From Deltaproteobacteria bacterium (GTDB taxonomy: Bacteria; Myxococcota_A; Polyangia; Haliangiales; Haliangiaceae), in assembly GCA_026129065.1 (NCBI GenBank), contig JAHCIV010000002.1, positions 64,001-88,962 of the forward strand: a stretch of 24,962 nucleotides of DNA, given 5' to 3'. Both the position numbers and the translations under genes were made by a program. The notes below the pieces were generated by a model. That model searched no databases, was not told the origin of the DNA, and saw only the letters and a program-made list of their open reading frames with translations. Of the stretch, positions 967 to 8,193 are shown one piece after another (position 1 is the stretch's first letter; each line of letters opens with the position of its first letter).

Positions 967-2106
967 TCACCCATGCGTGCGCGAGATCGCGCCGACGACA
1001 CCGGCCACTACCCGAAGCTGGTCGTCGACGCGCAGCGACGAGCCGCTCGGTAGACACAGCCCGTCGCGAAACAGCTGTTCGCTGACCTCGCCGCGCAGCA
1101 CCGTCGCGCCCGCGAACGCCGGCTGGAGGTGAAGCGGTTTCCACACCGGCCGCGCCTCGATGTCGGCCGCGGCGAGTCGTCGCAGCACGTCGTCGCGAAC
1201 CACGTCCGTGCGGGTGGCGTCGATCTCCGCGCACGTCAGCCAGAACGTCGAGCGCGCACCCTCGAGCTCGGGCATGAACCGCCATCCGGGCAGCGCGCCC
1301 AGCGCTTCGCGGTAGCGCGCGTTGATCGCGCGGCGCGCCTCGACACGCCGCTCGAGGTCGGCGAGCTGCACGCGCCCGACCGCCGCGAGCAGGTTGCTGA
1401 GCCGGTAATTGTATCCGACCGCGCGATGCTCGTAGTGCGCGACCGGCTCGCGCGCCTGGGTCGCGAGGTGACGAGCTCGATCGATCCATTCGCGCCGTCG
1501 CCCGAGCAACATCCCGCCGCCGGAGGTGGTGATGATCTTGTTGCCGTTGAACGACAGGATCGCGAGGTCGCCGAACGAGCCGGCCGGCCGGCCGCGGTAC
1601 GTCGCGCCGAGCGCCTCGGCCGCATCCTCGATCAGCCACACGCCGTGGCGGCGACACGCCGTCGCGATCGCCTCGTAGTCGGCGCACTGGCCGTACAGAT
1701 CGACCGCGATCAGCGCGCTGGGCAACGTGCCGGCGCGCGCGGCGCGATCGAGCTCGCCGACGACGAGCTCGGGATCCAGGTTCCAGCTCCGCCGATCGCT
1801 GTCGACGAACACGGGTGTGGCCCCGACGTACGCGACGGCGTTCGCGGTCGCCGCGAACGTCAGGGTCGATACCCAGACGCGGTCGCCCCGTTCGATGCCG
1901 AGCGCGAGCAGCGCGAGGTGGAGCGCCGCGGTACCGCTCGAGGTCGCGAGCGCGTGCGGCATGTCGAGCCGGTGCGCCAGCTCCTCCTCGAACGCGTCGA
2001 CCTCCGGGCCGAGCGGCGCGATCCACCCCGACGCGAGCGCGGCGCCCAGACGCTCGTGCTCGGAGCCTGCGAGCTCGGGAGGTGAGAGGAAGATCCGTGG
2101 GCTCAC
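967..2106 (-). CDS. DegT/DnrJ/EryC1/StrS-family PLP-dependent sugar aminotransferase (PglE/ArnB-like UDP-4-keto-sugar aminotransferase)
   Basis: The 379-aa ORF has the family hallmark region ...DLAILSFNGNKIITTSGGGMLL, where K is the predicted PLP lysine, and AAT fold-I motifs. Its GTG start overlaps the stop of the upstream dehydratase gene by 4 nt (GTGA at 2103-2106). Confidence 0.85.
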   Translation of the reverse strand: MSPRIFLSPPELAGSEHERLGAALASGWIAPLGPEVDAFEEELAHRLDMPHALATSSGTAALHLALLALGIERGDRVWVSTLTFAATANAVAYVGATPVFVDSDRRSWNLDPELVVGELDRAARAGTLPSALIAVDLYGQCADYEAIATACRRHGVWLIEDAAEALGATYRGRPAGSFGDLAILSFNGNKIITTSGGGMLLGRRREWIDRARHLATQAREPVAHYEHRAVGYNYRLSNLLAAVGRVQLADLERRVEARRAINARYREALGALPGWRFMPELEGARSTFWLTCAEIDATRTDVVRDDVLRRLAAADIEARPVWKPLHLQPAFAGATVLRGEVSEQLFRDGLCLPSGSSLRVDDQLRVVAGVVGAISRTHG

Positions 2107-4013
2107 GCCCCGATCTCCAGCGGGGCACCGACGTGCTCGACGAGGTGCGGCTTCGCCTCGAGCGCGGCCGATCGCGGTGCGGTGCCCGCGTACTCGGGAA
2201 CGAGGGTGCGGAGGGACGCGCGGATCGCGTCGGGTGCGCCCTCGCAGTGCGCGAGGAGGTCCTCGATCCCTCGGGAGATCTCGGACCAGGTTCCGCGCGC
2301 GATGCGACCGATGAAGATCTTGGGGTGCTTGGTCTTGTCGGCGTGCTCGGCGCTCGTCGAGAGCTCCTCGAACAGCTTCTCGCCGGGCCGCACGCCGCTG
2401 AACTCGATCTCGATGTCCTCGTCGGGACGGAGCCCCGAGAGCCGGATCAGGTCGCGCGCGAGCTCGACGATCCGCACCGGTGCACCCATGTCGAGGATGA
2501 AGATCTCGCCGCCGTTCCCCATCGCGCCGGCCTGGAGCACCAGCTGGCTCGCCTCGGGGATCGTCATGAAGTAGCGCTGCATCTCGGGGTGCGTCACGGT
2601 GACCGGACCACCGCGGGCGATCTGCTCCTTGAAGATCGGGATGACCGAGCCGTTCGACCCGAGGACGTTTCCAAAGCGAACGGTGACCATGCGCGTGCGG
2701 CTGCGCTCGCCGAGCGCCTGCACGTACGTCTCGGCGACCCGCTTGGTGGCGCCCATGACCGACGTCGGGTTGACCGCCTTGTCGGTCGAGATCAACACGA
2801 ACCGCGAGACGCCGAAGCGGTCGGCGAGGTCGGCGAGCAGGCGGGTCCCGCCGATGTTGTTCTTCACCGCCTCGCCCGGGTTCGCCTCCATCATCGGCAC
2901 GTGCTTGTGCGCGGCCGCGTGCAGCACGATCGACGGCCGGTGGCGCGCGAACAGCGGCTCCATCCGTCTAGGATCCGTGACGTCCGCGATGCACGGCGTG
3001 ATCTCGAGCGCCGGGTAGTCCTTCGTCAGCTCGCGATCGATCTCGAACAGCGCGTTCTCGAACCGCTCGACCAGCACGAGCTGGCGCGGTCCGAACCGGC
3101 ACGCCTGCCGGCACAGCTCGCTGCCGATGCTGCCGCCGGCGCCCGTCACCATGACGACCTCGCCGCGGATCGAATCGTTGATGGTCTCCTCGTCGAGCCG
3201 CACCGGCTCGCGCCCGAGCAGGTCCTCGATCGCGACCTCGCGGATCCGCGACAGGTTCACGTGATCCCCGACGATCTCGTAGATTCCGGGGATGATCTTC
3301 GTGTCGAGCTGAGCCAGCTGACACGCGATGGTGATCCGCCGGATCTCGGCGCCCGGGGCGTTCGCGATCGTGATCAGCACCCGCGCGACGCGCTTGCGGT
3401 GCGCGACCTCCTGGAGCTGCGCGGTCGTCCCCAGCACGGGCGTACCCGCGACGAGAGTGCCGACCTTGTGGGGATCGTCATCGAGGAAGCCGACGACGTG
3501 GAGCCCGAGGTCCGGCCGGCGCGTGATCTCGCGTGCCACGAGCACACCCGCCTGCCCGGCGCCGATCAGCAGCACCCGCTTGCGGGAACGCTCCGCACCA
3601 CGCCGGTTGCGCTCGCGCACGTCGACGTACATCCGGCGCGAGGCGCGGACCGTGATCAGCCCGGCGGCGGCGAGCACGAAGTTGGAGCACACCACCCCGA
3701 GCGGCAGGAACGCGAAGTCGAGCACCTCGACGAACCTCGACACCAGGAGGACTGTGCTCGTGATCGTGATCGAGATCACGATCTGGAGCGCCTCGCGAAG
3801 GGAGACGAACCGCCACGAGTGCTTGGGGATCCCGAGGAGCGCGAGGGTGACGTACTCGAGGACGAGGACCGTGGGCCACGCGATCACGCACGCCCGCAGC
3901 CAGAAGGCTGGGATCGCGAACTCGAATCGGATCAAGAACGCGAGCCAGAGGGCGGCAGACAGCACCGCCAGGTCGACGACGACCTGGAGTGCTCGCGTGA
4001 TGTGCCGGGACAT
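2103..4013 (-). CDS. Membrane-anchored polysaccharide biosynthesis protein CapD/PglF/WbpM family (UDP-N-acetylglucosamine 4,6-dehydratase)
   Basis: The 636-aa ORF has N-terminal TM helices, then a Rossmann motif VMVTGAGGSIGSELCRQ and the SDR-type YxxxK region ...STDKAVNPTSVMGATKRVAE. The length and architecture match PglF/WbpM. Confidence 0.85.
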   Translation of the reverse strand: MSRHITRALQVVVDLAVLSAALWLAFLIRFEFAIPAFWLRACVIAWPTVLVLEYVTLALLGIPKHSWRFVSLREALQIVISITITSTVLLVSRFVEVLDFAFLPLGVVCSNFVLAAAGLITVRASRRMYVDVRERNRRGAERSRKRVLLIGAGQAGVLVAREITRRPDLGLHVVGFLDDDPHKVGTLVAGTPVLGTTAQLQEVAHRKRVARVLITIANAPGAEIRRITIACQLAQLDTKIIPGIYEIVGDHVNLSRIREVAIEDLLGREPVRLDEETINDSIRGEVVMVTGAGGSIGSELCRQACRFGPRQLVLVERFENALFEIDRELTKDYPALEITPCIADVTDPRRMEPLFARHRPSIVLHAAAHKHVPMMEANPGEAVKNNIGGTRLLADLADRFGVSRFVLISTDKAVNPTSVMGATKRVAETYVQALGERSRTRMVTVRFGNVLGSNGSVIPIFKEQIARGGPVTVTHPEMQRYFMTIPEASQLVLQAGAMGNGGEIFILDMGAPVRIVELARDLIRLSGLRPDEDIEIEFSGVRPGEKLFEELSTSAEHADKTKHPKIFIGRIARGTWSEISRGIEDLLAHCEGAPDAIRASLRTLVPEYAGTAPRSAALEAKPHLVEHVGAPLEIGA

Positions 4014-4093
4014 GCCGTACGCTTAGTGGGCAGCCGGGGACCGTGTGTTCACGACCGGACCCTATCACGAAGCCACGACGGCGTTCTCACGGG

Positions 4094-7182: not shown

Positions 7183-8111
7183 TGATCCCCCAGTGGGATC
7201 TCGAGTCCCTCGAAGGCGCTGTCGAGCGAGAACGGATCGCCCTGCGCCGCGACGACGCCGCGGTACTTCGCGAGGATCCTGTCGTTGTCGTCGTCGGAGC
7301 GCATCGGCGCGTGGTGGAACAGGCACAGGCGCTTCACACCCGCGTCGCGCGCGATCTGGATCGCGTCGTCGGGGTGCGAGTGGCCCCAGTGCGGGCGCAG
7401 CCGGTACTCCTCGTACGTGAACTGCGTGTCGTAGATCAGCAGGTCGGCGCCCTTCGCGAGCGCGACCACGCCCGCGCGCATGCGGTCGAGCTCGGCCGCG
7501 ACGTCGGGCGGCAGCGGCTGGTCGAGCGCCGGCGGCGTCGTCACGAACTCGCGCCCGAACAGGATGTCGGCGAACGGCGCGGTGTCGGCGCAGTAGACGA
7601 GCGACGCGCGATCGCAGTCGATGCGGTACGCCATCGCGACCCACGGGTGGTTGAGGCGCGTGCACGAGATGCGGATGCCGCCGGGCAGCTCGAACCGCGC
7701 ACCCTCGAGCAGCTCGCGGAAGCTCATGTCCGCCTGCATCGCGGACATCGGCACCGGGAAGTACGGCGAGTCGTGCTGCTGCGAGAACACGGCCTCGAGG
7801 TGGGTGTCGCGCTGGCGCGCGAAGATCTCGACCTTGTTTCCGGCGCGGTACAGGGGCGAGAAGAACGGGAGGCCCTGCACGTGATCCCAGTGCGTGTGGC
7901 TGATGAGGATCGTCGCCGAGCCGCGCCCGTCGCCGAACGCCTCCTCCATGAGCGACTTGCCCAGCCTCCGGAGCCCCGTGCCCGCGTCGATGATGATCGG
8001 CGAGCCGTTCCGGGGCCGCACCTCCACGCACGACGTGTTCCCGCCGTACCGGCTGGTCGCTCGCCCGGGTACCGGAATCGAGCCGCGGACTCCCCAGAAC
8101 CTGACCTTCAT
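7179..8111 (-). CDS. MBL-fold metallo-hydrolase, paralog B (alternative upstream ATG start at 8168)
   Basis: The protein MKVRFWGVRGSIPVPG...ISHTHWDHVQG... has the same N-terminal box and HxHxDH motif as paralog A. By analogy with paralog A, I prefer the internal Met at 8111 over the track start at 8168. Confidence 0.65.
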   Translation of the reverse strand: MKVRFWGVRGSIPVPGRATSRYGGNTSCVEVRPRNGSPIIIDAGTGLRRLGKSLMEEAFGDGRGSATILISHTHWDHVQGLPFFSPLYRAGNKVEIFARQRDTHLEAVFSQQHDSPYFPVPMSAMQADMSFRELLEGARFELPGGIRISCTRLNHPWVAMAYRIDCDRASLVYCADTAPFADILFGREFVTTPPALDQPLPPDVAAELDRMRAGVVALAKGADLLIYDTQFTYEEYRLRPHWGHSHPDDAIQIARDAGVKRLCLFHHAPMRSDDDNDRILAKYRGVVAAQGDPFSLDSAFEGLEIPLGDQ

Positions 8112-8193
8112 GAAACTCGCGTGAGCCGAACCGCACCGCCGACAGACCCCGGCGCGGCCAATCGGCACCCTAACGCCCGGAACACCCTCGCGG

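Follow-up and report, generated by a model that had tools for sequence, protein, structure and literature searches.

Why do two hydrolase genes of the metallo-beta-lactamase (MBL) fold stand immediately before a sugar-nucleotide acetyltransferase gene? The question is raised by a 24,962-nucleotide stretch of DNA from a Deltaproteobacteria bacterium (assembly GCA_026129065.1, contig JAHCIV010000002.1, positions 64,001 to 88,962), which is called the window below. A preliminary description had treated positions 967-8168 of the window as one module, in which a dehydratase, an aminotransferase and an acetyltransferase of the bacillosamine type are interleaved with a beta-helix lipoprotein and the tandem MBL pair, and it had suggested that the MBL enzymes might be phosphodiesterases or hydrolases acting on a nucleotide sugar or a lipid-linked intermediate. 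Using gene identities, catalytic motifs, folds and synteny as directly observed, we arrive at another answer, to which we give a probability of about 0.8. The stretch consists of two functionally unrelated units lying head to tail on the minus strand, and the module for a diacetylbacillosamine (diNAcBac)-type sugar borders a glycan locus that varies between strains, to which it belongs, and is a chance neighbour of a conserved block.

Genes were called by frame analysis of GC content at third codon positions together with the openness and listing of open reading frames (ORFs), and domains were assigned by Pfam and NCBIfam scans; the composition of the window is approximately 70% GC. All seven minus-strand genes that had been read before are present, and every domain call is backed by Pfam or NCBIfam. 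The first unit (8661 to 6325) would comprise dtd, MBL2 and MBL1 and would lie within a syntenic block of the Kofleriaceae. The dtd gene (8194-8661, minus strand) encodes D-aminoacyl-tRNA deacylase (TIGR00256, 152 bits versus a cutoff of 101.5); its longest ORF extends over 8194-8700, and its start is most likely the ATG at 8661. MBL2, the upstream member of the tandem (7179-8111, minus strand; PF12706/PF00753), had been placed at 7179-8168, and the longest ORF does have this extent, but the start was moved from the GTG at 8168 to the ATG at 8111 because the N-terminus MKVRFWGVRGS is conserved. The spacer between dtd and MBL2 is therefore 82 bp, not 25. MBL1, the downstream member (6325-7182, minus strand; PF12706, Lactamase_B_2), overlaps MBL2 by 4 bp and is separated by a 9-bp gap from the acetyltransferase gene, both as previously described. 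The second unit would run from 6315 to beyond the left window edge and would be the 5' end of a surface-glycan cluster.

First, the MBL pair is conserved together with dtd. Species-representative genomes were scanned with an alignment of the MBL proteins, which gave 80 loci, and the window proteins were placed on them by tblastn. The tandem MBL2-MBL1 occurs in 29 loci, with alignment gaps of 0-44 nt, when the scan is taken together with L001-L003, where L001 is the sister genome GCA_019637375.1. These loci are titled as Kofleriaceae, Polyangia, 'Myxococcales' and Deltaproteobacteria metagenome-assembled genomes (MAGs); in addition, one MAG is labelled Chloroflexus and one Bacteroidota. In 10 loci dtd precedes MBL2 by 39-112 nt (L001, L002 and eight whose titles name Kofleriaceae or close relatives), and in three further loci it is 3.4-7.8 kb from the tandem pair. 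Diverging from dtd in the window is a gene for a Cys-rich lipoprotein of 164 aa without a family match (8730-9224, plus strand), which is conserved in the block and is found upstream of the MBL pair, diverging from dtd or from the pair itself, in most Kofleriaceae/Polyangia loci with enough upstream sequence. The arrangement Rieske-DppC-DppB-Cys-rich lipoprotein, divergent from dtd-MBL2-MBL1, is common to the Kofleriaceae loci. As a rule, there is no conservation downstream of MBL1 across the tandem loci; among the 21 that have at least 3 kb downstream, L001 is the only one with any of the four sugar genes of the window, and L008 contains a distant DegT-like match (33%) at 5.7 kb. The MBL pair belongs with dtd in a Kofleriaceae-wide syntenic block, not with the sugar cluster.

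Second, the sugar cluster is kept without the MBL genes. The glycan loci compared with the window were those of L004, L086, a Joint Genome Institute (JGI) record (3300050046), L090 and L091. Counting the window, PglF is downstream of the beta-helix gene on the same strand in six of six loci, and DegT follows PglF in five of them, L090 ending inside PglF. PglF directly adjoins the beta-helix gene in L086 and JGI 3300050046, is separated from it by two genes in L004, and lies 5 kb downstream in L091 and 6.7 kb downstream in L090. No Lactamase_B gene was found within 8-10 kb in any of these five loci. The preliminary description had proposed that the interleaving would be accidental synteny if the MBL and beta-helix genes were transcribed independently and were absent from orthologous loci. 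For the MBL genes, such absence is what the comparison of neighbourhoods showed, and we take the interleaving to be accidental.

Third, the near-identical strain L001 keeps the MBL genes and swaps the cassette exactly at the MBL1 stop codon, which speaks against the link between MBL and sugar genes. The MBL1 protein is identical in L001, and blastn gives 98.8% DNA identity over window positions 6324-17203; up to approximately 15.9 kb there are about 30 mismatches and no indels, an identity of about 99.7%. At window position 6324 (L001 position 10859), one base past the MBL1 stop codon, all similarity is lost both in blastn and in a base-level view, so that the synteny breakpoint is placed at 6324/6325. 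Beyond it, the opposite strand of L001 encodes Wzy_C and Poly_export, the convergent Wzy_C gene ending at the junction, and then genes for a 142-aa protein, PglF and DegT copies, a 391-aa protein, a GAPDH-like protein, HAD and CTP_transf_3. Its PglF and DegT copies are 64% and 71% identical to those of the window, and they are not orthologs, because the copies in the more distant L004, L086 and L091 are 68-79% identical. We propose that the juxtaposition is a lineage-specific rearrangement, which would have put the acetyltransferase and the beta-helix, PglF and PglE genes behind the dtd-MBL block with the MBL1 stop codon as the conserved flank. A repeat search at the junction found no flanking direct or inverted repeats, and no signs of mobile elements; its matches in the window were limited to the similarity of the MBL paralogs and a duplication in the beta-helix linker. 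The entire window was scanned for Rfam families and tRNAs without a match, and there is therefore no integration-site signal.

The break itself could be artificial. Both sequences are metagenome-assembled, and if either the window contig or L001 were a chimera of related populations joined at 6324, where the highly conserved MBL1 gene ends, the adjacency of MBL1 and the acetyltransferase gene would not be real. An identity of about 99.7% that falls to nothing within 1-2 bases can be read in this way, and about 29 small indels between the assemblies in the nearby 16563-17092 suggest that one of the two contains a local error of assembly or sequencing. However, the break is exactly at a gene end and not inside a shared repeat, the composition is continuous across it, and both contigs run on for at least 6-10 kb with coherent glycan genes. 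In addition, the NCBI records of the window's beta-helix and acetyltransferase proteins share one contig of 88,962 nt. We consider a chimera quite improbable.

The same results bear on the view that the MBL enzymes are dedicated parts of the pathway, hydrolases for a nucleotide sugar or a lipid-linked intermediate that are co-expressed with the acetyltransferase. The genes are on the same strand, with the 9-bp gap, the 4-bp overlap and no terminator-like site, and the fold neighbour 6B9V is a PhnP-family diphosphatase, which makes pyrophosphate-type substrates conceivable. Set against these points are the tandem loci with sufficient flanks that keep the pair without sugar genes (L001 apart), the five orthologous sugar loci without MBL genes, and the different cassette behind an identical MBL1 in L001. 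Conservation is also unequal, since the 120 best homologs listed for MBL1 share at least 78% identity with it, whereas the beta-helix protein is only 43-61% identical within its family. A dedicated role of the MBL enzymes in the pathway appears very improbable indeed.

Several points nevertheless weigh against two unrelated units with a diNAcBac-type module. The 9-bp gap and the lack of a terminator-like site make co-transcription of MBL1 and the acetyltransferase gene probable, which taken alone is compatible with a functional operon; every genome used for comparison is a MAG; and the acetyltransferase is nearest to PerB, a GDP-perosamine enzyme, not to PglD, so that the nucleotide sugar is not certain. 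Consensus scans, which are not tuned to high-GC Myxococcota, gave no promoters and a single terminator-like site, which falls within a gene. In the window strain, transcription is likely to continue from MBL1 into the acetyltransferase gene, and we infer that such read-through would be a consequence of position only.

What, then, does the sugar module make? The dehydratase gene (2103-4013, minus strand) encodes a PglF-like membrane-anchored UDP-GlcNAc 4,6-dehydratase (Polysacc_synt_2, 1.8e-117, and CoA_binding_3), whose N-terminal 130 aa are hydrophobic as read in the translation. Its nearest solved relative is PglF/WlaL of Campylobacter jejuni (5BJU, 1.8e-93), with whose ISTDKAV its own ISTDKAV aligns, and the T-D-K triad, which we take to be the catalytic motif of PglF, is kept. 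The aminotransferase gene (967-2106, minus strand), whose start is overlapped by the PglF-like gene by 4 bp, encodes a PglE-like sugar 4-aminotransferase of the DegT family that depends on pyridoxal phosphate (PLP; PF01041, 1e-94). Its nearest solved relative is C. jejuni PglE (1O61/4ZTC, 1e-83), and the SxNGNK motif of the PLP (Schiff-base) lysine is kept, SFNGNKIITTSGGGML being aligned to SYNGNKIITTSGGGML. The acetyltransferase gene (5713-6315, minus strand) encodes an N-acetyltransferase of the NeuD/PglD family and the left-handed beta-helix type (PglD_N and Hexapep domains), which passes the NeuD/PglB/VioB model TIGR03570 with 212.5 bits versus a cutoff of 160.8. Its solved relatives are PerB (4EA7, 2e-40), the acetyltransferase domain of Neisseria PglB (4M98, 3e-33) and C. 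jejuni PglD (2e-23), and its catalytic His aligns with the PerB position marked by an H-to-N mutant entry. Families, catalytic motifs and, for two of the three, the nearest solved relatives agree with the PglF/PglE/PglD-type reading given to the three enzymes before.

From these assignments, the PglF-like dehydratase would convert UDP-GlcNAc to a 4-keto-6-deoxy intermediate, the PglE-like aminotransferase would convert this to UDP-4-amino-4,6-dideoxy-GlcNAc, and the NeuD/PglD-like acetyltransferase would give the diNAcBac-type UDP-2,4-diacetamido-2,4,6-trideoxyhexose. This bacillosamine-type product is the most likely one judged from sequence, and the exact sugar is inferred, with some doubt over the acceptor of the acetyltransferase. 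The enzymes may instead make another 4-acetamido-6-deoxy sugar, such as the galacto epimer or a legionaminic-acid-type precursor, or the acetyltransferase may serve a 4-amino sugar made elsewhere. The much better match of the acetyltransferase to PerB than to PglD points in this direction, as does the best NCBIfam model of the aminotransferase, TIGR04181 of the LegC family, although its 352 bits are under the cutoff of 420. Furthermore, in the relatives PglF-DegT has no adjacent NeuD; the nearest ortholog of the acetyltransferase (68%) is approximately 35 kb away on the contig of L086, in a group that has its own DegT along with PIG-L, GT4, Bac_transf, GNAT, WbqC, epimerase and UDP-sugar dehydrogenase genes. 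On the other hand, the dehydratase and aminotransferase are nearest to the C. jejuni bacillosamine enzymes with their motifs intact, and the window contains neither a GDP-mannose dehydratase nor a nonulosonate synthase. We regard a different sugar as unlikely, while giving it clearly more weight than a chimeric junction. Literature searches on bacillosamine in myxobacteria returned nothing directly applicable. The sugar module is a further example of a well-known pathway, of an ordinary UDP-diNAcBac type.

The beta-helix gene (4136-5629, minus strand; PF13229/PF12708) lies between the acetyltransferase and dehydratase genes and encodes a right-handed beta-helix lipoprotein of 497 aa. Its N-terminus, MLRLALLVAVAAC, looks by eye like a lipobox, and the linker that follows contains a DDDKPD-coding duplication (window 5486-5608) of two 57-nt copies that are 70% identical. 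The family is small, with 27 database matches, and its named members are from Kofleriaceae. The AlphaFold2 model has a mean predicted local distance difference test score (pLDDT) of 92.9 and the right-handed parallel fold of epimerase and lyase enzymes. Its top Foldseek matches are AlgE4, AlgE6, alginate epimerase/lyase, the RbmB lyase, GH87, GH110 and phage tailspikes, with AlgE4 (2PYG) ranking first at an E value of 3.9e-09 and a template modelling (TM) score of 0.53 normalised to the query and 0.67 normalised to the target. Q146, H148, D183, R210, D234 and E240 are invariant across the family. That this protein could be a depolymerase or epimerase for the resulting glycan had been suggested earlier, and the suggestion gains from the predicted fold, which resembles polysaccharide epimerases, lyases and glycosidases, and from the linkage to PglF in all six loci. 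The best reading is a predicted periplasmic or surface enzyme that modifies or cleaves the polysaccharide of the cluster; it would be an extracytoplasmic epimerase, lyase or glycanase with the completed polymer as its substrate.

At the other end of the module, the N-terminal part of a large lipoprotein (3-923, minus strand) with a LAVTGC-containing signal peptide runs off the window edge. It has no Pfam or NCBIfam matches, and it is 51-56% identical to the genes that follow DegT in L004 and L086; a protein of 1065-1116 aa stands at this place in L004, L086 and JGI 3300050046, and full-length relatives are approximately of this size. It is a conserved gene downstream of the aminotransferase gene in the glycan cluster. 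In L086 and JGI 3300050046 the genes after the large protein encode a protein of approximately 390 aa and then a GT4 glycosyltransferase; L004 ends inside the large protein. In agreement with what had been noted before, no glycosyltransferase, flippase or polymerase was found by Pfam and NCBIfam within 967-8168, and the transferases would lie beyond the window, probably in the order large lipoprotein, ~390-aa protein and GT4 seen in relatives.

Other genes were observed around the cluster in the relatives. Large tetratricopeptide repeat (TPR) proteins are encoded shortly upstream of the beta-helix/PglF/PglE cluster in L004 (1-8652), L086 (1-9013) and L090 (1-5578), and two upstream genes of L086 have GltG/GltJ-like AgmX/PglI C-terminal domains, that is, they are gliding-motility-type genes. 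In L090, GDSL-lipase-like and MBOAT genes (5603-9314) directly precede the beta-helix gene.

MBL1 and MBL2 are paralogs with 38% identity, both of the Lactamase_B_2 family. The AlphaFold2 model of MBL1 (pLDDT 86) matches RNase Z (1Y44), YhfI (6KNS), ZipD, the Bacillus anthracis ElaC homolog, ELAC1, PhnP-family enzymes and Apyc1, with TM scores of up to 0.73-0.79 to the RNase Z/YhfI/PhnP/Apyc1 group; Apyc1 ranks 41st and 49th among the fold matches. YhfI, RNase Z and Apyc1 have been described as MBL-fold class II-type phosphodiesterases (Hobbs et al., PMC9117128). A beta-lactamase or glyoxalase-type role was rejected, the neighbours in fold and sequence being all phosphodiesterases. The preliminary description had called for classification of the subfamily with hidden Markov models, and in these searches the two proteins stayed far under every cutoff: 62 and 67 bits versus 293 for RNase Z (TIGR02651), where only the C-terminal ~75 residues align, 38 and 47 bits versus 400 for the cyclic-nucleotide phosphodiesterase model NF041851, and 23-25 bits versus 272 for PhnP (TIGR03307). 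As for Apyc1, PF23023 appears in precomputed matches only, mostly marked weak, and was not recovered in our Pfam scan at E values up to 1. JGI labels homologs 'phosphoribosyl 1,2-cyclic phosphodiesterase'; no phn genes were present in the neighbourhoods viewed around the pair, and in the literature searched, a Myxococcus class II phosphodiesterase that could be applied here directly did not turn up.

At the residue level, the HxHxDH motif (SHTHWDH) and the downstream His, Asp178 and His243 ligand columns are complete in both paralogs, E. coli RNase Z/ZipD can be aligned with the C-terminal region, and the N-terminus of the family is distinctive (MK[IV]RFWGVRGS...YGGNTSC). RNase Z enzymes have histidine motifs that are named HEAT-type and HST-type. 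In the pair these histidines are split and never both in one chain, MBL1 having HDTT at the HEAT position and GFSS in place of the GHS of RNase Z, and MBL2 having YDTQ and GHSH. The MBL1-type gene is directly downstream of an MBL2-type gene in 29 of 29 tandem loci, and all 54 single-copy loci (54/54) are MBL2-type; a lone MBL1-type gene should rank high, because matches were ranked by how closely they resemble MBL1, and none was found. MBL2-type genes also occur as single copies in many phyla, and when the neighbourhoods of single-copy homologs from other phyla were clustered, no conserved partner emerged from which a substrate could be read. Known MBL relatives are dimers. MBL2 and MBL1 are translationally coupled paralogs. 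Their most likely substrate would be a phosphodiester in a nucleotide or in RNA, and they would probably work together as a heterodimer. The obligate tandem, the reciprocal HEAT/HST losses, the intact ligands and the dimeric known relatives suggest that the heterodimer may be obligate. That the pair is as a whole an uncharacterised module, independent of the sugar cluster, in which both chains are needed for one heterodimeric phosphodiesterase of the RNase Z/YhfI-like kind, is put forward tentatively, as a substantial possibility that we would not yet favour. If it is true, the pairing behind dtd in Kofleriaceae allows a role at tRNA/RNA 3' ends or in cyclic-nucleotide turnover.

The family around this pair is large, with at least 7,600 proteins at E values of 1e-10 or below among the best 8,000 candidates. 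One homolog, from a Rhodospirillaceae MAG (L069, 9620-10858), has a fused N-terminal response-regulator receiver domain, which hints at a signalling role for part of the family, for example in the turnover of nucleotide second messengers. In the window, the dtd-MBL unit is 10-13 kb away from genes for an RNA ligase (PF09414, 21400-22335) and QueC (18196-18870). Another gene, at 15898-17544 (minus strand), is for a PMT_2-type (GT-C) glycosyltransferase; it contains two in-frame stops and a frameshift-like stretch, and its counterpart in L001 is called intact (542 aa). The indels mentioned above are one- or two-base differences confined to 16563-17092, a region of 77% GC; elsewhere the window and L001 are free of indels. 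The gene is either a pseudogene or the product of a local assembly error.

These results have several consequences. A false lead is removed, in that MBL hydrolases in a nucleotide-sugar cluster are a positional accident and add no new pathway step, and a routine bacillosamine-type precursor module in an uncultured member of the Kofleriaceae (Myxococcota) remains. The beta-helix lipoprotein, found mainly in Kofleriaceae as a steady companion of PglF/PglE, can be considered a candidate glycan-modifying enzyme. Strains that are otherwise nearly identical have apparently exchanged glycan cassettes, and the exchange falls exactly on the end of a conserved gene. In addition, the obligate MBL2-MBL1 tandem could steer the biochemistry of a very large uncharacterised MBL family.

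Compared with known systems, the module has the same three enzyme families and catalytic motifs as the PglF-PglE-PglD set of C. jejuni and the PglD/PglC/PglB-domain set of Neisseria. Among the differences, its acetyltransferase resembles PerB and the Neisseria PglB domain more closely than PglD, and in the relatives the acetyltransferase gene does not adjoin PglF/PglE. The window also lacks a PglC-type phosphoglycosyltransferase, a PglB/PglL oligosaccharyltransferase and a flippase; in the Pfam and NCBIfam scans of 1-8168, the phosphoglycosyltransferase, flippase and oligosaccharyltransferase or polymerase of a complete Pgl-type locus were absent. A Bac_transf gene was found only in the distant NeuD-containing group on the L086 contig, and the relatives carry GT4 downstream. 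The conservation of the beta-helix protein and the large lipoprotein in the cluster suggests a system that makes a polysaccharide rather than one that glycosylates proteins.

The MBL pair resembles RNase Z/ElaC, YhfI, PhnP and Apyc1 in its fold and HxHxDH ligand set, and is set apart from them by scores under all family cutoffs, by its own N-terminus and by its obligate tandem in Myxococcota. The E. coli O-antigen locus between galF and gnd is variable among strains and bounded by conserved flanking genes. Like such O-antigen and capsule loci, the window and L001 carry different cassettes from one shared flank; unlike in those loci, a single flank is visible, and both genomes are MAGs. Finally, the beta-helix protein shares its right-handed parallel beta-helix and its polysaccharide cluster context with the C5-epimerases AlgE4 and AlgG, with alginate epimerase/lyase and with RbmB of Vibrio cholerae, and the GDSL-MBOAT-beta-helix order of L090 resembles that of alginate O-acetylation/epimerase operons. 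It differs from the alginate-type enzymes in being only 12-18% identical to them and lipid-anchored, and its putative substrate would be an amino-sugar polymer, not alginate.

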